DNA of 22,674 bases from a bacterium (GTDB lineage Bacteria > SAR324 > NAC60-12). Shown here in pieces: positions 2,715 through 22,674 of this stretch (position 1 is its first letter; every line of letters starts with the position of its first letter). The position numbers were made by a program, and so were the translations under genes. The stretch is taken from the NCBI GenBank assembly GCA_965233585.1, contig CBDDTI010000476.1, positions 1-22,674 on the forward strand, read 5' to 3'. The notes under the pieces are model-generated. The model ran no database searches. It was not told the DNA's origin and saw only the letters and a list, made by a program, of their open reading frames with translations.

Positions 2715-2762
2715 TTTGACAGTTGCAATTTTTTATTTTTCTTAAATAGATATGAAAATCCT

Positions 2763-3941: not shown

Positions 3942-4114
3942 TATTGGAGTGTGAGCACGAATGTGTGGAGTTTCCGGAGCAACTGGGTGATAGTCTCAGA
4001 TATCTCCGGATAGAATATGGTAGCTGCCAAGCACAGTGCTCCGATGATGCTGAGGATCAGTAAGAAGTCGATGACTTTGCACATCGCCGGGTTGACTGTG
4101 ACTGGCACTAACAT
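3941..4114 (-). CDS. 57-aa small hydrophobic membrane ORF (absent from the ORF track)
   Basis: MLVPVTVNPAMCKVIDFLLILSIIGALCLAATIFYPEISETITQLLRKLHTFVLTLQ*; ATG 3 nt after the pol stop; its TAA overlaps the next ATG (TAATG). Confidence 0.62.
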   Translation of the reverse strand: MLVPVTVNPAMCKVIDFLLILSIIGALCLAATIFYPEISETITQLLRKLHTFVLTLQ

Positions 4115-4117
4115 TGA

Positions 4118-7100
4118 TTACAATTTACGGAGAAATCTGCGATTGCGACGCAGAGTTGACCCGTCTGAGAATTTTACTACGTAAGATCTCTTATACGGCA
4201 GGCATTCATGAATGATGCCTCTCCGATTCCACTTGTGTGAAAGCATATCCTGACACAGCACATTGTCTCCCTCTACAAGATCTGGTTGTATGAATGCATT
4301 CCGATCAAACGACTTCTTCATGTCTCTATCGCGTTTCTCCCTGTCATTTCTCGCTCTGGCCATATCTATGGGGTCGTGAGCAACGGCCAATCTGGGTATG
4401 CATGTCCTTTGCGCCCTTCCGAACATAAGCTGGGCAGGGCTGAGGCCGCCAGGTCTTGGTACGTTCCTCCACTCCAGCAGGCTGGCCTCGAAGAGTCTCC
4501 AGTCTTCCCCACATTTCTGTAGGAGATGTTTGCAAATTTTTACACCACACTCGGCGTCGCCATTGGACTGCGGATAATGCGGCGAGCTGGTTTCATGTAT
4601 CATTCCGTGTCGAGCGCAATAGTCGTCAAATTCGCTTCGAAAGGCCGGCCCGTTGTCCGTCCTGATCGTTCTGGCAAATCCAAAGTTCATAAAGATTTTA
4701 TGCAGCTGATCGATGACCGCTTTGGCCGTCATCGATCGCAATGGCGCCGCAAACGGAAATCCGGAAAACCTGTCCATAACACAAAGGAAATGTTTGCCTC
4801 CGGAATCGAATATATCCACCCCCACTTGCTGTAAGGGGTAAGTTGCCACCGTGGGCTGCAGTTGCTGCTTCGGCAAGCTGGGCAGGTGGTACTGACAGGC
4901 TTCACAGGCCTTGACGAAGTTGTCGATTTCGTTTGCCATACCCGGCCAATGATATAGTTGCCGGAAGAGGGTCTTCATTTTTTCCGCTCCGCAGTGGCTT
5001 TTGTGGCCGTCTTGCAAGAGCCCCCTCCTTGCTTTTCTCGGCACCAAGACTTTGGTGCCATCAAGAACAATGAGTTTTCCATCCATGGTAGATAGTCTGT
5101 CCCATAGGCTTTGTAAGGACGCAGCTGGATGTTCGGCGGGTAAGTCATTGATCGACACATTTTGATTGATCGCTGCGAGCTGATGTTGGTACCCCTCATC
5201 CTCGTCAGCTGCCTCCAGAAGCTTCGTCAGGCCCGGATCCTCCACGCCAACTGCCTGGATGGAGATCCCATCTTCCTGATTTCTCGCCGCGAATACGGGT
5301 GCGCGGGATAGGGCATCCGCGATGTCGTGGATCTTCCCGGCTTGCCATGTCACATTGAAGGTGAAGTTTGCCAGCCGTTCACGCATTCTTAAAATCCGGG
5401 CATTCATTGCCTCATCCAAGGGTTTGGATAAAAGCGTAACAAGTGGCCGGTGATCGGTCACCACGGTGAATCCTGGGTGGCCGAGTAAGTAGTGCCTGCA
5501 CTTAAGAATTGCGTATTCTACGGCCTTCGCCTCTAATTCCACAGTGGACCAGTTCTCCTCCGCAGACGTCAAGGATCTGCTGCCGCATTGGATCAGGAAC
5601 CTTCGGCCAGCTTCATCCTTCTGTGTCAACGCAAACCCTAGGCCTTGTTTCTTCGAGGCATCGGTTAGCAGCTCTGTCTGTTTGCTCCTGTCAAAAAGTT
5701 TGACAACCGAGGGTGAGGTCAGCAGATCTTTCACCCTGGCAAATTCCTCCTCATGTTCAGGTAGCCAAAGGAAATTAACCCCTTGTTTCAGAAGATGCCT
5801 GAGGTTCATGGTCATATGGGAGAGATCCGGCCTGAAGTTTGCTAACTGATTGGCCAGACCAAGGAAGCTCCTCAATTCTTTCACACACGTAGGAGCTTTG
5901 AAGTCCGCTATTGCCTTCAACCTGCCAGGATCCGGCATGACTCCCTGCGCTGATATGATGTGCCCCGCAAATTTGACACTCTCGCTGATGCGAAATTTCT
6001 TCAAGGATACGATAACATTGTTCTTTTTACAGTTGGTGAGCACCGCTCTGATCCTGGCCTCGAGTGTTATAATGTCCGGAGCTGAAACAAGGACATCGTC
6101 AACAATTTTCTGGACACCTTCCAATCCCTCAATTACCTTGTCGGATCTGCAGCACCACTCATCCGATGATGCGTTGAGTCCCATCGGGGCCCGAAGGAAG
6201 CGGAACTTTCCTGACGGCAGCAAAAATGTGGTTAGTTTAGATGCACTTTCCGATAAGGCGATCTGATGATATCCTTGCACCGCATCCAGTGTAGCAAAGA
6301 CCCTACCATCGGGTGGTAGCTGTTGCAGAATATCCTTGGTGGAAGGGAAAGGGTGCACAGGCCTTTTCACATGCTGGTTCAGCCCGGTGTAGTCAACAAC
6401 CAGTCGCAAGTCCTTAACGGTCACCACCACCATTCCTTTTTTCAAAGCCTCCTTCACCTTAGGGTCTCCTTTCGGCACAAAAAAGGCGGGTGCGATCCAA
6501 TCCGTAGGGCCCTCTTCCTTGGTTATGACCTTTGATTTCAAAAGTGTGTCGATTGCGGTTGCAGCTGGGTCCTGCCAGTGCAACGGTACGGATCTGGCTG
6601 TCAAACACTTTCTTGGAATTGCGCCGGCTTTAAGGGTGATGTCCATCGGTTTACCTGCCATTGGGTTATCTGTGAGACCCTCCCCGAAGGTCCCCTCGAA
6701 TTCATCGATCAATCTACCCCTCAGCCGCTCCATGTGGTCATCGACATCGATTGCTGCCGTCTTGTTTATCCGAGCGGAGGGGAAAGACCTCGGCAAGACC
6801 TCCATCTCCTTAAGATCCCTTTCGGCGATTAGCATTTCCCTCGTCATCGATGATGTGATCAAGGCCATGATCGGAGTGACCTTTCCGTCAAAAGCTACCT
6901 TGATTGGGGAGCGTCCCTCGCATCTCATCCCCTCATTGTTAGCGGCGTAGAGCCTTTCCTTAGCCCGATACATGGGCAACCCGAACTTCTGGGCCAAGTC
7001 CAGGCTGATGATAGTCCTGGAGCTACCGGTGTCTGCACAGGCATTGAACGGAAACTTGCCATTGATGATGACCTTCACTCTAGGCGTTGCAGATTGATCG

Positions 7101-8446
7101 CAGATTTTTCTGACCGTGACTCTCTTGGCTTCCTCACCGAGCTCCTCCTCGGATTCATATTCAGGCGGCGGCACGTCCTCCATGTCCGACGCCTCCGTGA
7201 CGACAGCGCGGGCACGAGCCTGATCGTTGTTGCCTTGGCGCCCCGCCCGCTGCTTGGCTCGCTCTTTCTGACACGTCCGTTTCAGGTGTCCCACCGTCTG
7301 GCAACCGTGACAGGATGCCGTCTTGTGTTGGCAATCCTTGGCTTCATGGCTTTCACTCCCGCACCGTGTGCACCGGCCCTGCTCCCTCAACTCTTGCAGG
7401 GACGGTATGGGTCGTTTTCGTGGTTGCGGAGCGTTAGCCTGTTTTTTCTTGACGAACCTCGCAGCGGCAGATGGCTGGTCTATGGTTTTCACTGAGCTGG
7501 CCGCAACCTCATATTGATGTGCAATCTTGTCCAAGATCTCCATGGTGGGTGATTCTTCCTTGAGAAACCGCTCCCGTAGCTTCATGTCCACGGTGCCCGT
7601 GATGTACCGCATGACGTAAATGCCATCGGTGGACAGCTCCGATAGGGCGGCCTCATCGCCCAGCGCTTTCACCTTGGACGACCAGTCGCTGAAGGACTGT
7701 CCAGTTGTCTGCATAGACTCGAAAAACTCCACCCTCCTGGCAAGCAGGGGGTACTTCACAAGGAATTCCTCCTCCAAGAGACCCATGCAGGACACTTGCG
7801 TGTCAGATCCGAACACCGGCGTTGTCTCCTGGATCTTGGTTGACAGCTTCATCTCGAGGTGGATGTCGATAACCATTCGGAAATACGCCTGCTGTTCTTG
7901 GACCGACGCTGCCTCCATGTTAGAGCTCGTGAACCACGCCTTGAATTTCTTGCACCACGACTTCATTTCCACCGTATTGTGGTCTCGAGACAAGACGTGG
8001 GGCTCCAAAGCCTTGTTCGGTTTGACCCTGTCGGGCTTGGTCGCGGTCGTTGCCGGAGACGTGCCAGGCCTCTGTGACGGGCGTTCCTGGCCGGCCTCAA
8101 GCGCCCTGAGGATCCTGTTGACGGCCGCGTCCGCTCGGTCGGCCTCTGCATTCAACTCTACCTCCCTGTCGGCGTAATGCTCCTCATCCGCCGCCATGAG
8201 CTGCAAGTATTTCTCCTCTAGGGCCTCCATCTGCGAACGAATTTTCCCCAGCAGCTCTGCCAGGACCTCCATGACATGAGATGACGGCCTGCTGCCTGCC
8301 TCGTCTATTGCTTTAGTAGCTGAATTGATACGTCTCGTCAGGTGGCCTTTCATTGCCCGAATGGCATCCTTCATTGCCTTTATCTCACGGACAGGGACCC
8401 GAGGACCGAGACCGGCCTCATCAGAGGTGCCTTCGCTGTCCGACAT
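4118..8446 (-). CDS. gag-pol: Gag-Pol polyprotein (1442 aa)
   Basis: Two CCHC knuckles (CTRCGSESHEAKDC, CHGCQTVGHLKRTC), protease ADTGS, RT (LDAVQGYHQ, PMGL, IVDD), RNase H (TDAS, ELEA, TDH), integrase HHCC plus D,D(35)E (VDIF, TDNGPAF, NGDAE). Confidence 0.97.
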   Translation of the reverse strand: MSDSEGTSDEAGLGPRVPVREIKAMKDAIRAMKGHLTRRINSATKAIDEAGSRPSSHVMEVLAELLGKIRSQMEALEEKYLQLMAADEEHYADREVELNAEADRADAAVNRILRALEAGQERPSQRPGTSPATTATKPDRVKPNKALEPHVLSRDHNTVEMKSWCKKFKAWFTSSNMEAASVQEQQAYFRMVIDIHLEMKLSTKIQETTPVFGSDTQVSCMGLLEEEFLVKYPLLARRVEFFESMQTTGQSFSDWSSKVKALGDEAALSELSTDGIYVMRYITGTVDMKLRERFLKEESPTMEILDKIAHQYEVAASSVKTIDQPSAAARFVKKKQANAPQPRKRPIPSLQELREQGRCTRCGSESHEAKDCQHKTASCHGCQTVGHLKRTCQKERAKQRAGRQGNNDQARARAVVTEASDMEDVPPPEYESEEELGEEAKRVTVRKICDQSATPRVKVIINGKFPFNACADTGSSRTIISLDLAQKFGLPMYRAKERLYAANNEGMRCEGRSPIKVAFDGKVTPIMALITSSMTREMLIAERDLKEMEVLPRSFPSARINKTAAIDVDDHMERLRGRLIDEFEGTFGEGLTDNPMAGKPMDITLKAGAIPRKCLTARSVPLHWQDPAATAIDTLLKSKVITKEEGPTDWIAPAFFVPKGDPKVKEALKKGMVVVTVKDLRLVVDYTGLNQHVKRPVHPFPSTKDILQQLPPDGRVFATLDAVQGYHQIALSESASKLTTFLLPSGKFRFLRAPMGLNASSDEWCCRSDKVIEGLEGVQKIVDDVLVSAPDIITLEARIRAVLTNCKKNNVIVSLKKFRISESVKFAGHIISAQGVMPDPGRLKAIADFKAPTCVKELRSFLGLANQLANFRPDLSHMTMNLRHLLKQGVNFLWLPEHEEEFARVKDLLTSPSVVKLFDRSKQTELLTDASKKQGLGFALTQKDEAGRRFLIQCGSRSLTSAEENWSTVELEAKAVEYAILKCRHYLLGHPGFTVVTDHRPLVTLLSKPLDEAMNARILRMRERLANFTFNVTWQAGKIHDIADALSRAPVFAARNQEDGISIQAVGVEDPGLTKLLEAADEDEGYQHQLAAINQNVSINDLPAEHPAASLQSLWDRLSTMDGKLIVLDGTKVLVPRKARRGLLQDGHKSHCGAEKMKTLFRQLYHWPGMANEIDNFVKACEACQYHLPSLPKQQLQPTVATYPLQQVGVDIFDSGGKHFLCVMDRFSGFPFAAPLRSMTAKAVIDQLHKIFMNFGFARTIRTDNGPAFRSEFDDYCARHGMIHETSSPHYPQSNGDAECGVKICKHLLQKCGEDWRLFEASLLEWRNVPRPGGLSPAQLMFGRAQRTCIPRLAVAHDPIDMARARNDREKRDRDMKKSFDRNAFIQPDLVEGDNVLCQDMLSHKWNRRGIIHECLPYKRSYVVKFSDGSTLRRNRRFLRKL

Positions 8447-8497
8447 CTTTCGTCAGCTGATCTCCACAAACTGAACTGCGGCCCCTGACACAGGTTC

Positions 8498-8515
8498 ACT
8501 GCCGCAACTGCGCCA
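8498..8515 (-). other. Primer-binding site TGGCGCAGTTGCGGCAGT, probably tRNA-Ser
   Basis: TGG immediately follows the 5' LTR; TGGCGCAGT is complementary to the ...ACTGCG-CCA 3' end found in some animal tRNA-Ser; tRNA identity inferred. Confidence 0.75.
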
Positions 8516-8691
8516 TCTTTGCTTTGTTATATCTGTATTGTACTTTAGAGGCCTTTAATCATACACTTTTATAAGTTCTTCCATTTTAGACTGCCTTTCA
8601 TTTCATGAATCACTGGGTGTGGTTTCTATCTCAAAACTGAGTGGGGAATCTGTTGATTCCGGACTCACGCAACCTTTCATGCAATCTCACA
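8516..8691 (-). repeat. 5' LTR (176 bp) with TATAAAA at 8573-8567
   Basis: Identical to 3103-3278; followed by the PBS and the gag ATG at 8446. Confidence 0.95.
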
Positions 8692-9524
8692 ATTGTCTCA
8701 ATATTGGTTTGCCGCACTTGATAATATCTGACCTTTTTTACATTATGGTAAAAATAATGACCCTCCATTTGCTTAGGTAAAGTTGTTGTAAACATAATTG
8801 TGGAATAATTATCACTGTTAGGAACGTCGGAAATAATATTTGATTTTACGTGAACCAAACCGGGTTTTAAAACGGAATACACTTTATTTGCTATGGTTTG
8901 AAACCTAAAATTTTTTTGTAACGGATAATACACATATTCGTTGTCAAATACCTTAATTGTTTTTTCTCCAGAAAATAACACTCCGTCTTTATAACATCTT
9001 AACTTTATAATTTTTATTAAATGTTGATGAATTAGTAAGTATCTATTATAATTGTAATTTTCATTTTCCGACTCATTTTCAGTTTCTTTTTTAGGACCTT
9101 CTTCAATTATGTAGACTCTTTTATTTTCACCGTCTGATTTGACGTCACCACTAGTCAATTTCATTCCTTCCTTGTAAATATATTGCATCAAGTGCTGCAT
9201 TAATCTATATATTGTCAGATCCTCTTCATCTAAATCGGGCAAAACCCAAACGGATTTTGTCTGGTCTAAAATCTCGGTCTTTATCTCCTCTTCTGAAGAA
9301 TTTATAGATGTTAATTCGTTTTTTAGCATTATGACACCGGTTTGACCTTTTGTCATGGTTAATTGGTTGTAATTATAATGTAACCCCATAGATACTATTC
9401 CAATTTCCCATTCTCTATTTTTCAAATCTAAATTTTGCGGAAATAAATTGGTAAAGGAATTTAAAGTATTTTTGACGTCCGTATTGGAACCAGCGTTTGA
9501 CACGCAATAAATGTTATAATCCAT
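8692..9524 (-). pseudogene. Minor capsid (penton-like) protein, C-terminally truncated by the LTR
   Basis: N-terminus YNIYCVSN....KNTLNSFTNLFPQNLDL..EWEIGIVSM typical of Polinton minor capsids; after VRQTNIETI the ORF reads into LTR sequence. Confidence 0.8.
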
Positions 9525-9530: not shown

Positions 9531-10613
9531 TTATTGTGACACATCAACTACATCTTTTTCATATGTCCAACTAGGGTTTTTATACCCTTTCCATTTCACC
9601 AAAACCATTTTTTTGCCTGTTTTTTTATCTTTTTTTGTTCGTAAAATCTTTTCAATCACAAATAATTCCGGCTCATTCACGGGAGTAAGTTCACTCTCGT
9701 AAAAATTCCCTTCCAGAGTTTCATCCTGTTCTAAAGTTTCTAATTCATAAGTAGGTTTAGGCAAACGAGTAAAAATTGATTTTATTTTAAAAATTTCTTC
9801 CTTAAATTGTGGTGTAAAACCTCTGTCAAATTTTTCCTTCATTATGCTAATGCGCACGGTTTGACCAATTTTGTATTTCGGTCTTTTTCTTTTAAACTTT
9901 GAATAATGCAATTCCTGTTTTCTTCTAATGAGATAGGTCCGACCAGGGAGCTCGGCTTCAGCGGGTGACATCCCAATCATGCGATGTTTACGATTGTTGT
10001 AGGTATGAACAAGAAAGGGCAACGCATCGATGTACCTATCTGTATTTTCGTGAGTCATGTATTTAAACATCAGATTTTTTAAAGTTCGGTTAAATCTTTC
10101 CACAAAGGGGGCGTGCACAAAATTGTTGCTGTGTAATAGAAGAATGTTATTGTTTTTGCAGTAGGCTTGAAACAATTTATTCTTAATTTCTGCGCCCTTA
10201 TCAGCTAAAATTCTACGTGGAAACTTTTTTGCTCTTTTCATAATAGACTCAAATCCCTCCATAAAAGTTTTTGCTGTTTTATTTTTTAAGGGTTCTACAA
10301 ACGCGAATCGTGTAAAAATATCGATGGCTGTTAAAAGGTATCTATTTCCGTCATTTTCTTCGATCAAATTTCCTAAATCTATAAGATCAATTTGAAATTG
10401 ATATCTCTTATGATAAGCAAATGTCGGATTTCTAGGTTTAGGTAATTTTGGTTGTTTATGAAGTGTGTAAGAATCAGTTCCCTTTAACCATTCTTCAATT
10501 GTCGTCAAAGGAATTTTTTTTCCATAATAATAATAAATCAACGCAGGAGATGCAAAAGCTATTGGTGAGCCTGGTCTTGCATATTCTTTTAAAAAAATCT
10601 CTTTTGTTGTCAT
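9531..10613 (-). CDS. Maverick rve integrase with C-terminal chromodomain
   Basis: FQIDLID, IDIFTRFA, ADKGAE, VERFNRTLK, YNNRKH..IGMSP; chromodomain FVIEKIL...LVKWKGYKNPSW. Confidence 0.96.
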   Translation of the reverse strand: MTTKEIFLKEYARPGSPIAFASPALIYYYYGKKIPLTTIEEWLKGTDSYTLHKQPKLPKPRNPTFAYHKRYQFQIDLIDLGNLIEENDGNRYLLTAIDIFTRFAFVEPLKNKTAKTFMEGFESIMKRAKKFPRRILADKGAEIKNKLFQAYCKNNNILLLHSNNFVHAPFVERFNRTLKNLMFKYMTHENTDRYIDALPFLVHTYNNRKHRMIGMSPAEAELPGRTYLIRRKQELHYSKFKRKRPKYKIGQTVRISIMKEKFDRGFTPQFKEEIFKIKSIFTRLPKPTYELETLEQDETLEGNFYESELTPVNEPELFVIEKILRTKKDKKTGKKMVLVKWKGYKNPSWTYEKDVVDVSQ

Positions 10614-11029: not shown

Positions 11030-11776
11030 TTAATGCTTTAGACTTTTAAGACATCTGTATAAAGACATAACACTAACGCCTAAAATACGAGCCGTATTTT
11101 TGACGCTCGGATATAGTGTTCTTGTTTCTTTTAAAAAGGCATAAGCACATGCTGCTAATAAAGTCCTAGGAGCAAAAGAACTATTTTCATTTTTATTCAG
11201 TTTTTCTTTTATAGTTGTCATCTCTTGATAATTTAACTGTAGAGGCTGTAAAAAATATTCTGCCATATCTTTTGCTTTTATAGAATTTTCTGTTTTAATT
11301 GTGTTGGTCGAATCTTGTCTGTATAATTTTATCCATCGCCATACCGTTTTTGGATTAATGCCAACTTCCTGACACAAATGACTTATTGGACGGGGAATTT
11401 TTTCCTCTATTAAACTTTGATACAATACCATAGCAATTAAGCCTTTCGGATTAATTTTAATTTTTCCATTTTTTTGATAATGCCACGCTGCTATTTCTGA
11501 CCACAAATTAAAAATAGTGTTTGTGACATCATTATTTAAATGTAATTTATTACATAAATTTTTTAAAATATTTTTTTCTTTCTTCAAATGTTCGCTGTTT
11601 TGTTCAAATTCTTCATTTAAATTTTTTATTTTTTCCCATTTTATTTCTAAATTTGGTTCACAATATATTTTATCAATAACTAAACCACACTCAGTACACA
11701 CTACGTCTCCTTGTCTGGTGTCTTCTATTATATATTGATGAATGCACATTTTAATCCAATCTAATTTTTTGAACAT
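11030..11776 (-). CDS. TFIIB-like transcription initiation factor (start at 11776 or 11749)
   Basis: Zn ribbon CIH...EDTRQGDVVCTECGLV; two cyclin-like repeats (LCNKLHL...MVLYQSLIEEKIPRPISHLC; PRTLLAACAY...ARILGVSVMSL). Confidence 0.88.
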   Translation of the reverse strand: MFKKLDWIKMCIHQYIIEDTRQGDVVCTECGLVIDKIYCEPNLEIKWEKIKNLNEEFEQNSEHLKKEKNILKNLCNKLHLNNDVTNTIFNLWSEIAAWHYQKNGKIKINPKGLIAMVLYQSLIEEKIPRPISHLCQEVGINPKTVWRWIKLYRQDSTNTIKTENSIKAKDMAEYFLQPLQLNYQEMTTIKEKLNKNENSSFAPRTLLAACAYAFLKETRTLYPSVKNTARILGVSVMSLYRCLKSLKH

Positions 11777-11856: not shown

Positions 11857-12399
11857 TTATTCGGTTTTATATTTTTTCAGCAATTCATAAATAATTTTTA
11901 TTCCTTGTTTAGCGTCTTCTTCGCTGGAAGCTCCAATTATTACTATTTTTCCAGACGAAAATATTAAAGCAGAACACTTCTTTAATGTTAAAAACATTCC
12001 AGGAAATTTCTCAGAGTCGTATCTCTTTTGGATAATCCCAAAATCTACATTTAATTTCAAATTGTTGTAAAATGTTAATAAATTGATTCTTGATGACATT
12101 TGACACAAACAAGTCATGTTTTCTATTTTAAACTTTTCAGTAATAAATTTACTACTTATAACAAGTTTTAATTCGTCTAATGCTTTTGGTATATGCTCTG
12201 TGGAAGGGATTTTAGTGATATTTACGTGGAAATTTCGACTCTGTTTTGTTTTGGTAAACACAATAAAAGAATATTTTTTTTTAACAACAGTAAAATTATT
12301 ATAATGTTTTATTACATTATCGGTATTAAAAGAAATTTTGTCGCTGTCGATGAGACGAATTTTGCAACTGATTTTAACATTGCTGACCATCACTTCCAT
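11857..12399 (-). CDS. TATA-binding-protein-like factor (~180 aa from ATG 12399)
   Basis: Two TBP repeats: VSNVKISC / IENMTCLC, RYDSEKFPGMFL, ALIFSSGKIVIIGA. Confidence 0.88.
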   Translation of the reverse strand: MEVMVSNVKISCKIRLIDSDKISFNTDNVIKHYNNFTVVKKKYSFIVFTKTKQSRNFHVNITKIPSTEHIPKALDELKLVISSKFITEKFKIENMTCLCQMSSRINLLTFYNNLKLNVDFGIIQKRYDSEKFPGMFLTLKKCSALIFSSGKIVIIGASSEEDAKQGIKIIYELLKKYKTE

Positions 12400-12406
12400 C
12401 TTTGGT

Positions 12407-13756
12407 ATGGGCTTGCCCGATAAAAGCGGAATTGCTGGATTGGCCGTGGAACAAAACGATGGCACAGAAAGTGGTTTAGCGCTTCACGCACCCTTAGAAG
12501 TAGAAACGGGTCTATTGGAAGGGGCTCACGTTATTTACAATAGCGTGGCTTCTATCACTAACACTGGACCGGTAGAATTTCTTGTTCCTCGCGACAACGA
12601 GTGTTCTTTTATACTGAGTCAAACCAGACTTAGTGGACATTTTGTAGTGACAAATGATGACGGCGGCTTTGTCACGGACGCAAGTAAAACTGCGTTGGTA
12701 AATCATTTTGCTGCTTGTTTATTTAGTCAAGTGGAAGTATATTTGAACGGTGTTCAAGTAGCTGATTTGAGTTCGGCGGTCACCTACCCCTGGAGAATGT
12801 TTTTACAATCATATTTAAGTTACAATATTGACGTAAAAGACACTTATCTGGCTGCTGAAGGATATTATCCTGAAAATGAAGACGAAGTTACTGCTACCAA
12901 AATTACTGAAGACGTTTCCTCTCATTCTTTAAAAAAAAGAAAAAAGTTAATTTTAAACGGAAAAAAAGTATTTTTCAACTCGCGTATAGCCGTTGATCTG
13001 TTTGACACTGATCGATTTTTACCTCCAAATGTGGATATCAAGATAAAATTGGTTAGATCGGCTGAAACATTTGGTTTGCTTCAAGATCCTGCAGCAGCAA
13101 AACCTTTCAAAATTGTGTTGAAAGATGTCAAATTGCATATGAGAAAAGTGTTGCCCACGTTGATAATACGAGAAAGTTTCAAAAACAAACTTTTAAAAGA
13201 ACCGTGCTACCTACCTTTCAGCTCTACACGTTTAAGACATTACGTTATTCCTCAAGGCGTGTCGTCTTTTAACATCGCTAATATTGCTAATGGAACATTA
13301 CCCAAACAAGTGTTTTTTGTGATGGTTCACAATCAGGCTATGTCGCATGCTCCCGACAAAAATCCTTTTAATTTTCAACACTTTAATCTTTCCTCATTTA
13401 ATTTAAAAAAGAACGGGCAATGCGTATTTCCCAAACCTTTTCAACCTAACATAGGAGAGGGGGACGTTGTTGACTTGTATCGGCATTTATACGACAGTAT
13501 AGGTATTTCGCACGGCAATCAGTCCATTGGCTTGACGTATGATGCTTTTATAAATGGAAGATTTTTTCTGGCGGCCGACTTGACACCGGATCAATGTAAT
13601 TCGTACCACACACATCCGGAAAATTATGGAAATTTAGATTTAGAGTTGGCTTTTTCCCAAATCACTCCTCATCCAATATACGTTCTAGCCTTATCTATTT
13701 TTAACTCCGGTATTAAAATAGATCAATTTCAACAAGTCATGAAAGGAACCAATTAA
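12407..13756 (+). CDS. Maverick major capsid protein (double jelly-roll)
   Basis: GPVEFLVP, VNHFAACLFSQVEVYLNG, RFLPPNVDIKIKL, KNPFNFQHF, GNLDLELAF motifs; ~450 aa; likely start ATG 12407. Confidence 0.92.
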   Translation: MGLPDKSGIAGLAVEQNDGTESGLALHAPLEVETGLLEGAHVIYNSVASITNTGPVEFLVPRDNECSFILSQTRLSGHFVVTNDDGGFVTDASKTALVNHFAACLFSQVEVYLNGVQVADLSSAVTYPWRMFLQSYLSYNIDVKDTYLAAEGYYPENEDEVTATKITEDVSSHSLKKRKKLILNGKKVFFNSRIAVDLFDTDRFLPPNVDIKIKLVRSAETFGLLQDPAAAKPFKIVLKDVKLHMRKVLPTLIIRESFKNKLLKEPCYLPFSSTRLRHYVIPQGVSSFNIANIANGTLPKQVFFVMVHNQAMSHAPDKNPFNFQHFNLSSFNLKKNGQCVFPKPFQPNIGEGDVVDLYRHLYDSIGISHGNQSIGLTYDAFINGRFFLAADLTPDQCNSYHTHPENYGNLDLELAFSQITPHPIYVLALSIFNSGIKIDQFQQVMKGTN

Positions 13757-13759
13757 AAT

Positions 13760-14242
13760 ATGGAGGGCGGGTTATCAAATATCTTTTTAAACAATTACAT
13801 TCGACCCAGATGTAAGAATTTCATCGGGGTATTTTCGGTCGACGACTTGCCATCTGATCCGTTCACATTGCCTTGCTGTCTGATCGCTAACTTATCCAAA
13901 AGAAATCAAGAAGGATCTCATTTCGTAGCAATGTACATTAACAAAAAAAATCAACTCTATTATTTTGATTCTTTCGGTTTTTTACCACCGATATGGAATA
14001 AATGCCTGATGAAGTTTTTACGACCCTGGATAGAGAAGAATTCCTTCAAAATTATCTTATCTCACCCAATTCAGAGTTTCCGTTCTTTGTTTTGCGGATG
14101 GTACACGTGCGCATTTTGTTTATCTGTGGGCAACAATTTAATGACCCCTCAACAATTCGTTAAAATATTTGTAAAAAATCCCAAATCAGAAAATGATAAA
14201 ATTGTAACTCATTTTATAAAAAAAATTGAAAATAAATGTTGA
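13760..14242 (+). CDS. Adenain-like cysteine protease, copy B
   Basis: His (GSHF), Asp (YFDSFG), Gln/Cys (IQS..SLFCGWY); AATAAA at 14231. Confidence 0.94.
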   Translation: MEGGLSNIFLNNYIRPRCKNFIGVFSVDDLPSDPFTLPCCLIANLSKRNQEGSHFVAMYINKKNQLYYFDSFGFLPPIWNKCLMKFLRPWIEKNSFKIILSHPIQSFRSLFCGWYTCAFCLSVGNNLMTPQQFVKIFVKNPKSENDKIVTHFIKKIENKC

Positions 14243-14254
14243 TATATTTTACTT

Positions 14255-15715
14255 TCATAACTTTGGATATTTTCCTGAAAAAAGTTTTTTAACAGAATCT
14301 GCTTTAGCTTCTGATTTAGACATTTTTCTTGTTTTTGATCTGGTTTTTGCGGGAGACATACCAGCTTCAATAGGGTCCCTTTTTGTTGGGCTTCTAGATT
14401 GAAACATTTTCATTGATTTTGATCTGGTTTTGGTTTGTGCAGGAGTCATGTTAGCATCAGCGGAATTTCTTTTTGTTGCGCCCTTCGACTGGGCTTTTCC
14501 AGCTGAAAATCGTATTTTAACAGGTGTGAGTGGAAATGAAGGAGAAGAGCTTCCAATTCCTCTTAATCTTCTTTTTCGAGGGGTAGAGGTCATTCCAAAA
14601 ATTTTATTCTGATCTCTTACAGACAATTCTTTATAATGATCTTTCATCATGTGTTTGGCAAATTGTGGAATGCCGACATATTGCTTCCCGCAATTGGGAA
14701 AGGGACAAACTATTTTGCCAGCCGCATTCTTTTCTTTCACTGCTTTCGCAATAGGTGTATTTCGCCATTTTAACACAACGGGAGATTTTATTGCGGAAAG
14801 TGCGTATGAGTAATCCATTTCGTTTGAGCTGTTTGTTCTAGCGTAAGGACTGGAAATCATTCCTTTAATGGTCTTTTTGTCTTTCAAAGCTATATCTTTA
14901 GGATGATCTTTTAGCAAATGTTTGCCTAATTGTCCTTCGTCAACATATTGCTTCCAACAATCAGGAACTGGACAAACTAATTTGCCTCTTGAATTTCTTT
15001 TCGTCATCGCTTCTAAAACAGGTGTTTCTCGCCATTCTTCCCGTTGGGTACCAACAGGAGTTGAATAAGCTGATTCGTTCGGACTTTTTGTTTTTTCAGG
15101 ACTAAGAGATTTTTCTGCAACAGATTGTCTTTCAATAATGGGGGTACTAGGTAAATTATTTTCTTCTTGTTGGGGAATTTCAGTGGGTGTTCTGTAAAGA
15201 GATACGTCCGTGAGATCCATATTGGTATCAATTCGAGCAGGTGTTAGTGCATTTGGTATTTCTTCTCGTTGCGTAATTTGGGTGGATGGAGATCTTGAAA
15301 CAGGGTGGTAAGCGCGGTCAATACTGCTACCTTTTTGGGTAACTCGACCAGGTGACATTACATTCTGTATTTCTTCTCGTTGAGGGATTTGAGTGGATGG
15401 TGATCTTGAAAGAGATTGGTAAGTACGACCCATGCTATCAGATTGGGCGATTGATGTGACATTCGGTAATTTATCAGACCCAAAACGAAGTAATTTATCT
15501 CCAGTTTGGATTATTTTCTGTCTGTCTTGTAGATTTTTAAATTTAATGGCATTTTCAATATAGTTGGTTGTTTCCGGTTTTTCATTCATAGAAATAAGTT
15601 CCTTTTTTGATTCATCGTCTTCCGTATTTTTTATTAATGAATAATATAATCTTTTAGGTACTAAAAACATGGAATACATCTCATCATGCGGTTTTATTTT
15701 TATTCCTGAACTCAT
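14255..15715 (-). CDS. 2xC2H2 zinc-finger, S/T-P-rich basic protein (~486 aa), copy B
   Basis: CPVPDC..H..KDH and CPFPNC..H..KDH; ATG 15715 lies one base after the upstream stop; MFLVPK N-terminal motif. Confidence 0.85.
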   Translation of the reverse strand: MSSGIKIKPHDEMYSMFLVPKRLYYSLIKNTEDDESKKELISMNEKPETTNYIENAIKFKNLQDRQKIIQTGDKLLRFGSDKLPNVTSIAQSDSMGRTYQSLSRSPSTQIPQREEIQNVMSPGRVTQKGSSIDRAYHPVSRSPSTQITQREEIPNALTPARIDTNMDLTDVSLYRTPTEIPQQEENNLPSTPIIERQSVAEKSLSPEKTKSPNESAYSTPVGTQREEWRETPVLEAMTKRNSRGKLVCPVPDCWKQYVDEGQLGKHLLKDHPKDIALKDKKTIKGMISSPYARTNSSNEMDYSYALSAIKSPVVLKWRNTPIAKAVKEKNAAGKIVCPFPNCGKQYVGIPQFAKHMMKDHYKELSVRDQNKIFGMTSTPRKRRLRGIGSSSPSFPLTPVKIRFSAGKAQSKGATKRNSADANMTPAQTKTRSKSMKMFQSRSPTKRDPIEAGMSPAKTRSKTRKMSKSEAKADSVKKLFSGKYPKL

Positions 15716-15716
15716 T

Positions 15717-16091
15717 TTAACGACGACGTCGCGAACTCTTATTCGCAATAATTTGAGCCAAAAGAGGGATGACGGTGCTGGCGATCGCTGATAAAACTCC
15801 TAAAATTCCGCCCTTTTGTAATATTTTTCTTTTTTTTGAAATGTCGGAAGAACGACGCGGCGGTGCAGCAAGACGTCTAAATTCTACCAAATGAGCTCTT
15901 ATCTTTTTTTGAAGACGTGTTCGTACTTTGCCATGTATGGGCAAGTCACCGTTCAAAACGTAATGTAATATACGACAAAGTAATTCAACACCGCGATCGT
16001 CCAAATGGCTTAAAAAATTTGCACAATCCTGATGTTTTAATTTTTTTATTACATTAAAAAGCGAACTAGCTTTTCCTAATGTTTTAGACAT
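15717..16091 (-). CDS. Small basic Maverick protein (124 aa), copy B
   Basis: QKGGILGVLSAIASTVIPLLAQII amphipathic tail; intact in both copies. Confidence 0.82.
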   Translation of the reverse strand: MSKTLGKASSLFNVIKKLKHQDCANFLSHLDDRGVELLCRILHYVLNGDLPIHGKVRTRLQKKIRAHLVEFRRLAAPPRRSSDISKKRKILQKGGILGVLSAIASTVIPLLAQIIANKSSRRRR

Positions 16092-16138
16092 TTTGACAAT
16101 TGCAATTTTTTATTTCTCTTAAATAGATATGAAAATCT

Positions 16139-16834
16139 TTAAACAGTAACGTAAGCTTTCATCAGACCCTCGTACGGAAAAATGTTGCTTCGAATTCTGA
16201 CTTTATCGTCTTGTTGTTGATGGAAATCTAAAAGGAGATATCCGTGACTTCGACCGTTAACAGCTTCCCTGTATGCTTTATTTAAAATCCCGACTCGTCC
16301 GGGGAAAATTTGTTTAGCCAAATGTGCAACCGCACTTCTGTCCCGAGGATTGTTAAAAAGGACCATATACTGTGTGTTTATGCTTAATGTCCGCAAATCA
16401 CCTTTTTTATCAAATAGATTTTGACACAGAAAAACGGTGAAACAATTGTAGTGATGAGTCAAAACCGTAAAAAAATGTTTTAATATTTGTCCAACATCGT
16501 CTAAATAATCGTCAAAAACAACTAATTTGGGCATTTTTCTTGGATATGATTCCAAAATATCTTTCAATTCTTCAATCGAATTTGGAATACTTTTAAATTT
16601 ACGAAATGTTGGAAAGCGAGAGTTTGAACGTTTGTCTCGATTCATATCTTCTTCCATGTATTCATAAGCTTTTTGCGGTTCTTTGTAGAACAACAACATT
16701 GTTTCTGGCGGAGTTGCAAAATATTCGTGCCTACCAACCACTAAATGTTTAAGCCACGTTGTTTTTCCACTCGATGTTGGGCCAACAATTAACATGTTGG
16801 AAGGAATACTGAACCTTAAATCAAAACCATCCAT
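16139..16834 (-). CDS. A32/FtsK-like DNA packaging ATPase
   Basis: Walker A IVGPTSSGKT, Walker B VVFDD, LCQNLF, NPRD; likely start MDGFD at 16834. Confidence 0.95.
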   Translation of the reverse strand: MDGFDLRFSIPSNMLIVGPTSSGKTTWLKHLVVGRHEYFATPPETMLLFYKEPQKAYEYMEEDMNRDKRSNSRFPTFRKFKSIPNSIEELKDILESYPRKMPKLVVFDDYLDDVGQILKHFFTVLTHHYNCFTVFLCQNLFDKKGDLRTLSINTQYMVLFNNPRDRSAVAHLAKQIFPGRVGILNKAYREAVNGRSHGYLLLDFHQQQDDKVRIRSNIFPYEGLMKAYVTV

Positions 16835-16898: not shown

Positions 16899-19800
16899 TT
16901 ATTTACAAATATGGCATTTAGACGATTTGTTGTTGACAATAAGACAATTTCCTAGTGATAAAGTGTGATATCCGCAATTCAAAATGTGTCTTTTGGAATC
17001 CATTGCTGATAACGCAATCTTTCTTTGAAAACATGTCCGAATTTTATGATTCTTCGATCTTAAGTTTTTGAAAGATTTGTAAATTAGAACAGTCTGTTTC
17101 AGACATTTTTTGTAATCGTTATAGGACAATTGCTTTTTTATGCTAGATTTTTTTAAACCTTTGCAAATTTTCTTTTCTTCTGTTTTGTTTTTGTCTAAAA
17201 AATCAGTAATTTTCATAGAATAACATTTTGGACGTAAGCCTATAAAGTGAGTAATAGCTGCTCTGCCTTTTAGTTCGTCTTTGAAATAAAAAAGCTGATT
17301 GGCTCTACTGTCATCGAAAAGAGGATGTTGTTTGGGGTACTTTGAAAAATCAAATATGTGCTCCAATTTTTTCATTTCCCTTTCCAAGTTGTTGCATCTT
17401 ACTTTTAAAAGAAAAGAATCCGTGTCTGAGAAACATAAAGACACATTTTCTTTACCAAAATGTTGTTGAATCGTGTCATAATACGATCTGTACATAAACA
17501 ACTTGGACAATTCCAAAATAGAAAATCCAACGGCTAAAGGCTTCTTGAGCTCTATTATTGCTGGCTTCTTGTTGACAGCCACCAAGTTCTCATTGATGAT
17601 TTGAAAACTGTTGATGTGTTGACCAAGACTGGCTTTCCTTAAGCTTTGTTCATCTCCACAAAGGACCACTTCAGAGTAATTTCGAACATTTTCTGAAATG
17701 CAGAATAAGATTTATTTTATAAATAAATATATTGTTTTAAAAGAAAATTGATTATGCGCGCAAACACCTCAGCTAACTAGCCGTCCTATATCACATTTCA
17801 TTTTCCTCTGTAATTAGCAATGTGCTATAATTTACTACAATTTGAGATCATTCCGTTTTTTAAGCCCGACATAAACGGTCATCAAAAATTCTCACAAAAT
17901 AAACACCAAGTCAAAATGGATAAAAAAGACCAGGAAAAGAGCAAGGCTTTTTGGTTAAAAGTGATAAAATCAGGTCAGGAGGAGGCAACTTCAAGTCCGA
18001 CTTCTGGCAGTAGCTTTACTGGGGCTGCGGCTGGGGGAGCATGGTCATCTACTAAAACTGGGGGAGCATGGTCATCTTCTGGGGCTGCGGGTGGAGGAGC
18101 ATGGGCATCTTCCGAGCGTCCCGTGGCTCCTGCTTGGCCATCACGGACCCCGTACAAAGTCCGTCCCACAAAAATCAGGGTCGGAGTCGTGGAAGAGCAC
18201 ATCTACTGTCGGAGCCGGGGGTGGGGGAGCATGCTCATCTACTAAAACTGGGGGAGCATGGTCATCTTCTGGGGCTGGTGTGGGGGGATCATGGGCATCT
18301 TCCGAGCGTCCCGTGGCACCTGCTTGGCCATCACGGACCCCGTACAAGTCCGTCCCACAAAAATCAGGGTCGGAGTCGTGGAAGAGCACATCTACTGCCG
18401 GAGCCGGGGGCGGGGGAGCATGGTCATCTACTAAAACTGGAGGAGCATGGTCATCTTCTGGGGCTGTGGGTGGAGGAGCATGGTCATCTACTAAAACTGA
18501 GGGGGCATGGTCATCTACTAAAACTGCGGGAGCATGGTCATCTTCTGGGGCCTTGGGTGGGGGATCATGGGCATCTTCCGAGCGTCCCGTGGCACCTGCT
18601 TGGCCATCACGGACCCCGTACAAGTCCGTCCCACAAAAATCAGGGTCGGAGTCGTGGAAGAGCACATCTACTGCCGGAGCCGGGGGCGGGGGAGCATGGT
18701 CATCTACTAAAACTGGAGGAGCATGGTCATCTTCTGGGGCTGTGGGCGGAGAAGCATGGTCATCTACTAAAACTGAGGGGGCATGGTCATCTACTAAAAC
18801 TGCGGGAGCATGGTCATCTTCTGGGGCCTTGGGTGGGGGATCATGGGCATCTTCCGAGCGTCCCGTGGCACCTGCTTGGCCATCACGAACCCCGTACAAA
18901 TCCGTCCCACAAAGGTCGGAGCCGGAGTCATGGGATGAGCAGACCTCTCATCGCGTGTCATTTGATTTGTCTTCACAATCGACATCAAAATCTAAACCAC
19001 CACCCTATCGTCACGTGGAACCTTCACCGACGCCAGAAGTGCGTCAAGTAACAGCATTTCCATCGGTGTGGTCTCCGTCTACAGCTCGAAAAGTTACCAA
19101 AAAAAATTAAATTTAAATTTTGATCATTTTTCTTTTTCCTTTTAATTACAAAATAAACTCAACATTTTATAAAAATTGATTTTTCAAAAAGTTTGCGTAC
19201 TTGACTAATTAATTTCGCGAATTCTTAATTTAATATTGATTTAATATTATGAATATTTATGAGATAATTTGCTAATTAATATGTAAAGGTTTGGAGATTC
19301 ATTTTCTAAAATTGACAAAACCATGCGGGAAAATTCAAAACAAATTTTTAGAGAAGGAAGAGGAGAAGGAGAAGGAAAAGGAAAATGGACAAAGGAAAGT
19401 TGGGGAGGATGATGAGGAGGGGGAAATACGAGGTATTAAAGGTAAAATGGACGGAAGAGGAGGAGGAGGAGAGGTTCAAGCTGTTGCCGGACCCACCATC
19501 GAGCGAGGCACCGCCGCGTCCGCCACTGATGGGAGGCGGTGGCCGTCTTAGACGGTTCGCCAGGGGCTTGATCGAGATGATCAGGACGGCCGCCGCCTCC
19601 GTTGCCGGCTCCATCACCGGACGTCCGGACGTCATCCCCGTCGACGTCATCCCCGCCAACGTCATCGGCCCCGCCAACAAAGCCGAGGCCAAAGACGACG
19701 ACGATGACGATTTTGACATCGGCCCCGCCAACGAAGCCGATGATGCCAAAGACGACGATGACGATTTTGATGAGGCTAAGTGTGTGGTTGGTGCCGGCAG

Positions 19801-22674
19801 GACGTACTGCCGCAACTGTCGCCGGTACCACCACGCACTTGTGCCTCAAATTTAAAGAAAATATAAAAAATGACCCCAAATTCATTTGAGTATTTAACAA
19901 ATTCATTTTTTACAGAATTACTATTCGCGCTGCGTCAATTTACGCTTTTGCGTCTTTTACAATTCCAACATCATTAAATTATCTTATCTCAAAACTTACC
20001 AATAAATTTTCCAAAAGTAGAGTTGGCAAAAAGTTTAAAAAGCCGGAGTTCAAAGTCATTGCGAGCATTTGATCGCAGCTTTGTAACCTTTTCGATGAAC
20101 TCCTTCAAAAAAGCTTTTTGTCGAAACTTCATGACTCTTCTTATCTTCAGCAATTTCATGCCCTTTTTCAAGTAGTACTGCAGGTTTTCCAGATGCACCA
20201 CGTACTTTTTTCGGTCATAAAAAGTGCTCAACAATTTCTTGCTCCGGTATCTTTTGTTCCTATAATCTCGAGGGCAGTGATGTTTCAGTAAACGGCGATT
20301 GTAAGGAGATAGATGTTTAAAAGAAACCGTGTCTGTATACGGAGCCAGCGGAAATTGATCGTGCGCCTGAAAATGATATCGTGTAACTTGTCAAAAACAA
20401 TAAATAACGTATCACAACAAAGATCGGATTTACCTGGTGAAGATGGGAAGGATAATGCAAATCAACTTCAAACGCATATCCAGTATCGTCTTGCGAAGGA
20501 ATGTTGATAATATCTTTAGCAGTCCATTTTTTAAATTCAGTTTTTGGAACCCATTGGAAATCAGAAACTGGTAATTTTAAAGTTTCCATACTCCCATATA
20601 AGTTGTTGGCTGAAAAATTGTACGGATCATAACAAAATGATTTTATCAGATAATACAGTATAAAATTACCATCAATGTATAACAAGTGATCGCCGCTTTT
20701 TCTAGGATTGCTATTCCCTTTGGCATAACGCTGAGCGATAAAACTTTGCCCACCTCTGATACCCTTTGTAAAAAAACGCTCCATTTCAGGATCGGAATAG
20801 ACATCTAATGATCCGAGGGGTTTGGAAGTTTCAGATTCAGATGTGAGCTTATTATCTGATTTAGCTTGTTCTGAATTTTGAAAGAACATAAGCATGACAT
20901 CAAAACTCAAGCCAGGAATTCCTAATTTAGGTAGAATGAATTTAGTATTACGATACATCCAACGGTAAAGATTAAAATTTACCTAAATAATAAACAGGAT
21001 CCAATTGAAAATGTTCCATGACCATTTTCCTGTACTGAAGAAATGCTTCACACAGCAAAACAACGTCTAAAGAACAATAGAGCATCATGTAATCCACCAC
21101 ATTCTTGCATTTGAACGATTTAAAGACTTCTTGAGCATGGGAATAATCCGCTTCCGTAATGTGTTCTTCGTTCAATTCGGAATAAAACGAATCTTTAGAC
21201 GGAAGGTTTCGACTTTTCTTCATCTCTTGTAGAGATTGGAAATGTTCGTAACAAAAAACACCTTTTCTTTTTAAAAGTTTTAAAGCTTTTGATTTTTGAC
21301 GAACAGGAATTTTTTTATATCTTTCCATTTGTTGTAAAATGGGAAAGGTAAAATTTGAGGTCTGATTCAAATCTTGAACAAGCGCATCTAGACTGCCAGA
21401 AATGTGCTCTAACGAATCTTGAATTTTAAATTTGCCCAATGTAAGAGTGCGAAACTTTTCACTGTTTTTTGCTAAGACTTTTGGATTTTGCTTAAATTTG
21501 GAAACATTTAACTCTTCCACGATTAAATGCAAATCGTATCTGAAACGCGTACATAATTTGTGTTAGTTTAATAAAATAAACCCATTTAAGATTTCTTACC
21601 CTTGAGCGTTGTGGAAAAAAATTGGTGTGTGAAAGGGACCGGATCTCGTCAAGTTACACAGTGAATGAGCCGCGCCCATTATTTTCCCTGTCACGTGATC
21701 ATGATCCAGAACTTTTCTGTAATTTCTAGAGTACTTTTTGAACTGACCACCACAAATATGACAAACTTTTGCTTTTTGATACATTTGCCATTCTTGCGGA
21801 CTAGATTGATTTTTAACAATATGTCTAAATTTTTGTTTTCTTTCTTCAACAACTATTTCATAGAAGGACATCCGATCCAAAAAATGTTTGGCTGCATCCT
21901 CCCCTACATATTCTTCTTGAAAAAATACTTCATCATTCGAATCCACAAAAAGCAAGCTATACCCCACCGGTCTATGCACGTTTATATCGTCACTGGTGGG
22001 AAAAGCACACAAACACTCGGATTTTTAAACAGAGTCGACATTTAGATCGTTCTTTGTTTCTTTGAAGTACACATTCAAAATCACAAAATCCAACAACAGG
22101 AGCATGAAATTTATGTTTGTGATTGGTAAAACTTATGGAGGAATTTTTGGTTGGGTAGAGAGCACGTTGTTTATCACAGCAAGTGTCTTCGTGTTTTTCT
22201 TTTTTAGATTTGGATCGAAAATGTAGCAGACATTTTTCACAATAGATGCGCTTCTGTTGACCTGCTTTTTTACCCGACAACAGTCCGGCCCGATTATTCA
22301 AAAAACCTTGGATTTTGGTAATTTTAAAGAAATGGTGCTGTTGATTTAAATCCTTAATTTTTTTAAACTTGGAAGAAAAACCCAATTTGACATTAGAACT
22401 ACAATTGACAATCTTTTTACGGGAAGATTTTTTCTTGCGTTGAATTGGTTTTGCAAGGCGGGAATTATATGGACACTCATTTTCAAGAGAGATTTCAGGG
22501 TCGTATTTTATCATAAGCAAATTTAAAATGTTCTTGTTTCTGTTGTTGTTTTTATTAGTAAAAAAACCCAACTTTGAAACTTGACCCTCACTCTCATAAA
22601 AAACTGAAATTGAAATTGGTAAATGGGAGTTTCTATTTAGAAATTTTTTTAAATTACAAAATTGAAGAGGGAAC
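16899..22674 (-). CDS. Protein-primed family B DNA polymerase with endonuclease VII-like insert; spliced exons >22674-21600, 21539-20983, 20921-20670, 20609-20434, 20366-20000, 17692-16899; one +1 frameshift at 22022-22026
   Basis: ExoI CDFE, ExoII HNAQGYD, ExoIII YCSLD, motif A YIDANNLYG, motif B KLFANSTFGKFIENVR, motif C SDTDS; EndoVII-like CHIC...DHDHVTG...HSLCN; several motifs are restored only by splicing; frame stays open to the window end. Confidence 0.93.
17916..19110 (+). CDS. Nested ~397-aa Gly/Ser/Ala/Trp low-complexity repeat protein (one +1 indel at ~18156)
   Basis: aaaATGG start; removing the extra A (tacaaagt versus tacaagt in the next repeat units) joins ORFs 17820-18245 and 18091-19110; AATAAA at 19152. 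Confidence 0.65.
18020..18935 (+). repeat. Hierarchical tandem repeat: units spaced 190(189+1), 276 and 276 bp, built from short GGAGCATGGTCATCT subunits
   Basis: TCCGAGCGTCCCGTGGC anchors at 18111, 18301, 18577 and 18853. Confidence 0.92.
19385..19855 (+). CDS. Nested 156-aa acidic protein with C-terminal C-x8-C-x2-C-x3-H cluster
   Basis: aaaATGG start; GC-rich ORF bounded by AT-rich flanks; duplicated IGPAN..AKDDDDD(D)FD unit. Confidence 0.62.
   Translation: MDKGKLGRMMRRGKYEVLKVKWTEEEEEERFKLLPDPPSSEAPPRPPLMGGGGRLRRFARGLIEMIRTAAASVAGSITGRPDVIPVDVIPANVIGPANKAEAKDDDDDDFDIGPANEADDAKDDDDDFDEAKCVVGAGRTYCRNCRRYHHALVPQI
20367..20433 (-). other. PolB intron (67 bp)
   Basis: CAG|GTAAAT...TTTCAG|GCG restores HLHQAHDQFPLAP. 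Confidence 0.9.
20610..20669 (-). other. PolB intron (60 bp, in-frame, stop-free)
   Basis: G|GTAATT...TTTCAG|CC restores YIDANNLYG. Confidence 0.9.
20922..20982 (-). other. PolB intron (61 bp)
   Basis: TAG|GTAAAT...ATTAG|GA restores DPVYYLGIPGLSFD. Confidence 0.88.
21540..21599 (-). other. PolB intron (60 bp)
   Basis: GG|GTAAGA...TTTCAG|A restores HNAQGYDLHLI. Confidence 0.9.

Follow-up and report, generated by a model that had tools for sequence, protein, structure and literature searches.

Mavericks/Polintons carry cargo and move genes between species. The cargo described so far is intergenic and close to one end of the element. In nematode Mavericks, as described by Widen et al. (10.1101/2022.07.12.499685), the core genes are intronless, and a GC-rich cargo encoding enzymes such as proteases and kinases occupies the stretch from the left terminal repeat to the integrase gene. 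Introners, which are short, non-coding, genome-wide transposons (PMC11957031), occur in Maverick-Polinton-like proviruses of dinoflagellates. The locus considered here lies on contig CBDDTI010000476.1, which was analysed over its entire length of 22,674 bases (hereafter the window), is AT-rich (~35% GC) and bears a Maverick/Polinton-type element. Inside the last intron of the gene for the protein-primed DNA polymerase (PolB) of this element, two GC-rich open reading frames (ORFs), namely ORF1 and ORF2, are found on the opposite strand. Based on sequence comparisons, we consider it probable that a true PolB intron of a multicopy Maverick/Polinton family houses a fixed antisense pair of lineage-restricted accessory genes.

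The nematode cargo (10.1101/2022.07.12.499685) and the pair described here have in common that the accessory genes are GC-rich and poorly conserved compared to an AT-rich core, and that they are carried along with the element. They differ in that the genes described here lie inside a PolB intron and antisense to PolB, that PolB has five introns, and that the predicted products are disordered orphan proteins. The likeness to the dinoflagellate proviruses (PMC11957031) is that genes of a virus-like element would have gained spliceosomal introns through inserted DNA; in contrast to the introners, the PolB intron is without terminal repeats or target duplication and contains two protein-coding genes. 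The arrangement also resembles eukaryotic nested (intronic) genes, i.e., complete genes that an intron of a host gene contains in full, in the present case on its opposite strand and with possible transcriptional interference. However, the host gene is in this case the gene by which a mobile virus-like element replicates, and the pair is therefore copied and moved too. A full-text literature search, exclusive of supplements, returned no report of genes nested in a Maverick intron. A core replication gene with introns, one of them housing a conserved antisense pair, would represent a second way for compact elements to gain genes while leaving their own intact. Factors acting between element and host may be sought among the two orphan families.

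The last PolB intron occupies positions 17693 to 19999 (minus strand; 2307 nt, phase 1). On the minus strand it starts at 19999 with G|GTAAGTTT and ends at 17693 with ATTTCAG|, which shows that the coordinates in a preliminary description of this DNA were exact. The GT...AG ends, the Glu codon that is split G|AA by the junction, and the contiguity of the PolB frame in homologs also bear out the canonical splice sites claimed there, and the intron is indeed the last one, as the exon that follows (17692-16899, containing motif C, SDTDS) reaches the stop codon. The intron is positioned between PolB motifs B and C. When uninterrupted PolB homologs were aligned to the window by tblastn, they were contiguous across the gap, namely at residues 1025|1026 of P0002, 1035|1036 of P0018, and 960|961 of P0015; for P0002, residues 909-1025 correspond to 20363-20001, and residues 1026-1294 to 17693-16902 (41% identity). 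Together, three of six homologs are exact at the junction, two (P0020, P0023) are consistent with it, and one (P0001, from a cousin lineage whose PolB is ~63% identical) covers the 3' exon only; the intronless homologs align through the junction with zero residues lost. The exon upstream of the intron, located with P0002 residues 909-1025, extends over 20000-20366 (minus strand) and ends in motif B (KLFANSTFGKFI); its match to Pfam DNA_pol_B_2 (E=4e-05, 23.1 bits) is under the cut-off of 25.8. Siblings share the PolB split: the 3'-exon ORF forms a cluster of 104 members at 90% identity, with a length of exactly 256 aa in 8 of the 15 listed members, and the sibling protein P0158 reads out of the 3' end of the intron into the exon (..ILILFCIS|ENVRNY).

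Judged from these alignments, the segment is a genuine spliceosomal-type intron of PolB, from which splicing may be presumed. Alternatively, an unspliced 2.3-kb segment might inactivate PolB, and such copies would then multiply only with the help of intact elements. While this copy is degenerate in other ways (see below), the segment is inserted exactly between two codon positions, its strong GTAAGT and TTTCAG signals match the end signals of the four short PolB introns, and the same split recurs in the 104-member cluster, which makes a disabling insertion extremely unlikely. In agreement with the preliminary description, in which neither a terminal repeat nor a target-site duplication was evident, no convincing terminal inverted repeats were detected in 17600-20100 (best pair 26 nt at 73%), and no terminal repeats or target-site duplication were found at the intron ends, with only weak AT-rich pairs, none of them at the ends. 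Scans of the window for tRNAs and Rfam families gave 0 matches, which counts against an origin of the segment as an RNA gene or as an element resembling a short interspersed nuclear element. A repeat search of the whole window revealed no sequence common to the intron and the GC-rich long terminal repeat (LTR) retrotransposon in the window.

Both coding regions lie wholly inside 17693-19999 on the plus strand, ORF1 at 17916-19110 and ORF2 at 19385-19855, and each is preceded by an AT-rich region of its own, as had been reported in the preliminary description. The region upstream of ORF1 (17693-17915, 30% GC) contains TATAAT at ~17823 and may serve as a promoter; the spacer before ORF2 (19111-19384) has 23% GC. 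An AATAAA, likewise noted earlier, is present at 19152-19157, 42 nt past the ORF1 stop codon, and may act in polyadenylation. There is no AATAAA close behind ORF2, the next one being located within the PolB exon (20002-20007); the AT-rich tail of the intron, from the ORF2 stop codon to the PolB 5' splice site, covers 19856-19999 (28% GC). Both ORFs begin with aaaATGGAYAAA, as previously observed. In a comparison of the regions upstream of 15 gene starts, an A-rich context before the ATG was the sole common feature; this context is thus general in the element, and the aaaATG is not special to ORF1 and ORF2. The GC-rich character of the two ORFs was confirmed: ORF2 has a GC content of 0.59 (0.71 at third codon positions, GC3) and ORF1 one of 0.54-0.56, due to its amino-acid make-up, versus 0.28-0.38 (GC3 0.21-0.37) for the core genes, whereas the pol of the retrotransposon has a GC3 of 0.62. 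In base composition, ORF1 and ORF2 thus stand apart from the element as foreign DNA.

In mammals, nested genes and their host genes are documented to interfere with each other's transcription. The geometry of the locus, with two antisense genes that have their own upstream regions in a 2.3-kb intron, could correspond to a regulatory switch, in which convergent transcription makes expression of the nested genes and of PolB mutually exclusive, or yields double-stranded RNA that tunes the activity of the element. However, the sequence holds nothing that would tell such a switch from simple co-residence, and we regard it as very unlikely.

The two ORFs differ in integrity. ORF2 is intact as an uninterrupted frame of 156 codons, in line with the preliminary description, but the 1195 nt of 17916-19110 that had been described as the first ORF are not a single open frame. 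The frame that starts with the ATG of ORF1 stops at 18245, and the reading that matches the family resumes one frame over, from ~18160 to the stop at 19108-19110. When the four ORF1 repeat units were aligned, the change was traced to ~18155-18158, where unit 1 is longer by one base than units 2-4. The first part in the ATG frame (17916-18158) starts with MDKKDQEKSKAFWLKVIKSGQ, continues with GAW repeats, and is 92.6% identical to P0141 and 88.9% identical to P0133. The second part (18160-19110) includes GAWSS repeats, the PAWPSRTPYKSVPQ motif, and a conserved C-terminus ending in AFPSVWSPSTARKVTKKN and a stop; it is 94% identical to the intact P0133 (425 aa). Most of ORF1 consists of a 276-nt tandem repeat (2.5 copies, 97% identity), and the repeats at 18033-18913 recur every 189 and 276 nt and contain sub-repeats of 27 nt; all three periods are multiples of three. 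Among 8000 scored candidates, 17 relatives of ORF1 were identified. Seven of the 17, including P0133, are read in a single frame from the N- to the C-terminal motif, with an N-terminus of the form M-E/D-KK...W.QV.KSGQ, G-A-W-(G/A/S)-S repeats in differing number, PAWPSRTPYKSVPQ, and a C-terminus with AFPSVWSPSTARKVTKKN. The number of repeats varies, and the relatives range from 173 to 425 aa. The product of gene 1 is predicted, on the basis of modelling, to be a disordered Ser/Gly/Ala/Trp-rich protein with a variable repeat number.

For ORF2, 19 relatives were obtained at E<=0.01 among 295 candidates, with identities from 99% down to 35%. In the protein (19385-19855, 156 aa), residues 54-74 are predicted to form a helix, an acidic tract includes a repeat of 54 nt at the DNA level, and the C-terminus carries a Cys/His motif (residues 129-156, 19769-19852) that reads D.AKCVVG..RTYCRNCRRYHHALVPQI and has the spacing C-x8-C-x2-C-x3-H. 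This motif ends 16 of the 19 relatives. In an alignment of 17 sequences, 14 columns of the last 28 residues are invariant and 11 more are nearly so, whereas sequence and length of the middle vary freely; C142, C145, H149, and H150 are invariant, and C133 is nearly so. The AlphaFold2 model shows this helix and, at the Cys/His motif, a hairpin (139-150), in which residues 141-150 form the sole block with a mean predicted local distance difference test (pLDDT) score near 79. The ORF2 C-terminus had no match to a curated zinc-finger model, i.e., no Pfam family at E<=0.01 and no meaningful match in solved structures. Gene 2 encodes a small protein whose N-terminus is basic and which combines a predicted helix and an acidic tract with a probable zinc knuckle at the C-terminus. 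In the region preceding ORF2 (19323-19384), an upstream ATG at 19323 is followed by a purine-rich (GAR)n tract and is one base out of frame in the window; it is in frame in 4 of the 19 siblings (P0120, P0125, P0127, P0132), in which it adds a 20-21-residue extension of the type M-R/W-E/K-NSK.IF... This ATG may be an alternative start or belong to an upstream ORF.

Searches in wider collections returned little beyond these relatives. A Pfam search of 25 ORFs of the window gave nothing for ORF1 or ORF2, the ESM Atlas held no usable match for P0136 or ORF2, and a sequence search of solved structures with both family profiles produced weak low-complexity matches, the best of which (E=6.7e-4) was to a fusion construct. 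Against 1.84 billion representatives, the ORF1-family profile retrieved 22 proteins, all of 64-269 aa, at least 11 of which were already known ORF1 relatives. Relatives of the ORF2 profile and of the PolB 3' exon were absent from bacterial and archaeal contigs, where none were expected, a result that is silent on the eukaryotic host. Sequence comparison places ORF1 and ORF2 in real, lineage-restricted protein families, whose starts, ends, and internal motifs are conserved.

The evidence for real genes comes from the conservation of these families and not from the length of the ORFs. In block shuffles of GC-rich DNA, 156 codons were reached in 53 of 2000 cases, the strand antisense to ORF2 is also open for 156 codons, and open frames are present on either strand in several further registers, all of which weighs against the existence of the gene pair and would suit passenger DNA, i.e., a decaying GC-rich piece derived from a host gene or a different element, whose frames are open through few stops and from which no protein is made or needed. 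Further points on that side are that ORF1 is broken in the window and shows frame changes in 9 of its 17 relatives, that 3 of the 19 ORF2 relatives (P0122, P0123, P0127) are frame-shifted, that the proteins are of low complexity and predicted to be disordered, without known domains, and that they diverge far faster than the core genes. The structural models are of low confidence as well: the mean pLDDT is 51 for ORF2 and 54 for a sibling of ORF1, whose true protein part has no secondary structure. In addition, identical alternative-frame peptides (SVWLVPAGRTAATVAGTTTHLCLK) are encoded at 19769-19889 by P0123, by P0127, and by the alternative frame of the window, so that the DNA under the ORF2 motif is nearly identical although the copies differ by ~20% elsewhere in the protein; this could, from the sequences, reflect gene conversion or a constraint at the DNA or RNA level, possibly a non-coding cause. 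However, decaying passenger DNA would not readily keep the same start, stop, and terminal motifs down to 35% identity while the middle varies, nor the frame to the last residue in 16 of 19 ORF2 relatives, and the repeat periods of ORF1 are all multiples of three. Passenger DNA is therefore considered unlikely.

The linkage of the two families to the element was deduced from equal contig sizes in protein tables and not from sibling DNA, which limits the case for a nested pair. For this purpose, 15 members were listed for each of seven core-gene clusters (38-107 members), together with all 7 members of the cluster of the 5'-flanking exon. Among the 39 distinct contig sizes of ORF1 and ORF2 relatives, 14 recur among the listed core-gene cluster members. 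Matches were obtained with the exon just 5' of the intron (28431, 13833, 27761), with the next exon upstream (10543, 11573, 19756, 28431, 56613, 53536, 71221), and with the 3' exon (11257). The other 25 of the 39 sizes are without a match, and as long contigs may hold several copies of the element, the matches show linkage rather than position; both points also count against a fixed position in the intron. The fusion protein P0148, in which the N-terminal part of ORF1 is joined to the C-terminal part of ORF2, implies that the two are adjacent and co-oriented in a divergent subfamily too.

The matched contigs also make the pace of divergence visible. ORF1 and ORF2 proteins span 35-99% identity versus 92-99% for core proteins, and on 10 of 11 matched contig sizes all core proteins of the contig resemble the window more closely than the ORF1 or ORF2 relative does. 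For example, on the contig of size 56613 the core proteins are 97-98% identical and the ORF1/2 relative 77%, and on that of size 11573 the values are 98.8% and 65%; the exception is the contig of size 44827, with 97.3% for the core and 99.4% for the ORF1/2 relative. The largest gap is on the contig of size 11257, where the PolB 3' exon is 93.8% identical and the ORF2 relative 35%, with only the C-terminal motif kept. Such a combination leaves room for either replacement or very fast change.

This bears on the proposal in the preliminary description that the intron is a cargo bay, i.e., a hotspot at which different accessory genes are swapped between members of the family. The contig of size 11257 is the sole hint of replacement; the changing repeat number of ORF1 (173 to 425 aa) could be counted as variation of the same kind, and variable GC-rich cargo has a precedent in the nematode Mavericks (10.1101/2022.07.12.499685). 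On the other hand, all 36 relatives belong to the same two families, in searches that were seeded with the ORFs and are blind to any other cargo, and the P0148 fusion represents the same pair in a divergent subfamily. The variable cargo expected among family members of a hotspot was not seen in these ORF-seeded searches. What stands of the proposal is a plausible insertion-tolerant site in a tightly packed element; exchangeability of the content is not supported, and we regard a swapping hotspot as distinctly unlikely. Since the same two families occur wherever relatives were found, a fixed nested pair is preferred over an exchangeable cargo bay.

A possible history of this fixed pair is as follows. 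Foreign, GC-rich DNA would have landed in a pre-existing short PolB intron. In the element, the stop of one gene and the start of the next are 3-8 nt apart at four junctions and up to ~64 nt apart at the others that were read; with mostly very short spacers, the intron would be one of few sites where an insertion destroys no gene. Splicing would then remove the insert from the PolB message, and the two genes would be transcribed from their own AT-rich upstream regions. The acquisition was probably a single one, after which the pair would have become fixed, evolved fast, and spread with the expansion of the family.

With respect to function, we favour a role of the gene products in regulation or in interaction with the host over one as enzymes or components of the virion. 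The ORF1 product of the window has 27 tryptophans in 398 residues, placed amid Gly, Ala, and Ser at a spacing of 9-18 residues, and 17 of them are in [GAS]W[GAS] contexts. In being disordered, with many tryptophans amid Gly/Ala/Ser and up to 8 WG in some siblings, ORF1 resembles the GW/WG Ago-hook proteins and their viral mimics (PMC2965232, PMC2904775). Unlike in these, none of the 27 tryptophans of the window ORF1 is part of a strict GW or WG dipeptide (siblings have 0-8 WG), and the likeness to Argonaute-binding tryptophan repeats is a resemblance only, to be used as a lead. By analogy, ORF1 might be a tryptophan-repeat decoy for the Argonaute/small-RNA silencing of the host (Ago hook-like), with ORF2 as its zinc-knuckle partner and the antisense placement physically coupling transcription of PolB to that of anti-silencing factors, although we would give this reading very little credence. 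If it were true, an arms race against silencing by the host would account for the fast divergence of the pair and for the varying number of repeats.

The remainder of PolB (minus strand, 16899 to ~22514) is split into further exons. A total of 111 homologs were found at E<=0.001, full-length relatives (1200-1400 aa) align over all exons, and motifs A, B, and C are present. The four short introns, which share the GTAA...(T)TCAG/TTAG signals with the last intron and coincide with alignment gaps or stop-containing stretches, are located on the minus strand at 20367-20433 (67 nt, GTAAATCC...TTTTCAG), 20610-20669 (60 nt, GTAATTTT...TTTTCAG), 20922-20982 (61 nt, GTAAATTT...AAATTAG), and 21540-21599 (60 nt, GTAAGAAA...GTTTCAG). 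Removal of the second restores the motif A region (YID|ANNLYG), and the third is accompanied by a frame change between high-scoring segment pairs at 20981/20925. In the N-terminal region of PolB (21596-22012, minus strand), an Endonuclease VII / HNH-type domain is encoded (E=6.9e-07) with a DHDH...N motif, which many PolB homologs have likewise. HNH-bearing pPolB2 is known from nematode and oomycete Polintons (PMC10748475), and the PolB described here is alike in having this type of domain before the polymerase core, a likeness by domain and not by phylogeny. The survey in question accepted pPolB ORFs only from a length of 900 aa upwards (PMC10748475); a PolB with five introns would fail this minimum, and surveys of this kind would miss intron-bearing families. 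The family at hand would be such a case while being multicopy, given that a single cluster at 90% identity has 104 members.

On the minus strand, the element also encodes an integrase, a TFIIB-like and a TBP-like protein, a C2H2 zinc-finger protein, and an ATPase, and the ORF listing includes two ORFs of the element on the plus strand (12350-14242). The integrase ORF (9531-10613) matches rve above the Pfam cut-off (E=2.6e-09), and its Chromo match (24.7 bits) is just under the cut-off of 25.1. Matches of the ATPase to A32/FtsK are weak; those to Pox_A32, FtsK, and, for an adenovirus-type protease, Peptidase_C5 in ORFs of the window are all under their own Pfam cut-offs. With a seed of 12, 0 inverted pairs were found across the window that could represent terminal inverted repeats of the element; the contig ends inside or beside PolB, so that the ends of the element may lie outside it. 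The TFIIB-like and TBP-like proteins are encoded at 11030-11776 and 11857-12465 (minus strand), respectively. The former has a zinc ribbon above the Pfam cut-off, a weak cyclin-repeat match, and several helix-turn-helix matches, and the latter has one TBP repeat (E=2.6e-19). Basal transcription factors of its own would be unusual for so small an element, and a literature search of titles and abstracts turned up none that pairs Polinton/Maverick with TBP or TFIIB.

This copy of the element is decaying, as suggested by the broken frame of ORF1, a discontinuity in PolB, and a neighbouring gene that is cut by a retrotransposon. The PolB frame changes between 22035 and 22018 (minus strand), i.e., within 17 nt, which leaves no room for an intron and where a homolog has 16 residues; this copy would seem to have a frameshift there, or else the sequence contains an error. 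The GC-rich Ty3/gypsy-type LTR retrotransposon is located at 3101-8691 (minus strand), with a gag-pol ORF (4118-8446, 1442 aa) that has protease, reverse transcriptase, RNase H, and integrase matches. Its LTRs are 176 nt and 100% identical, suggesting a very recent insertion, and are adjoined by a TGG... primer-binding site and a polypurine tract. No target-site duplication was found at its flanks (aaaaa vs attgt), which are parts of different Maverick genes, the ATPase gene at the left and a 583-aa gene at the right; the contig is thus recombinant, or else a chimeric assembly of two copies of the element. The ORF at 8631-9524 (minus strand, 297 aa, no Pfam match) is the C-terminal-side remnant of a gene with 583 aa in 8 of the 15 listed siblings, and sequence comparison indicates that this gene was cut by the retrotransposon. 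At the left end of the contig, positions 1-3100 are 95-99% identical to 13381-16480 and carry the capsid-end, 160-aa, zinc-finger, 124-aa, and (in part) ATPase genes once more; by its sequence, this end is a second, truncated Maverick copy. The C2H2 zinc-finger gene, which sits between the capsid-side genes and the ATPase gene, is present in both element copies (14255-15748 and 876-2210, minus strand) and has internal 94-111-nt repeats.

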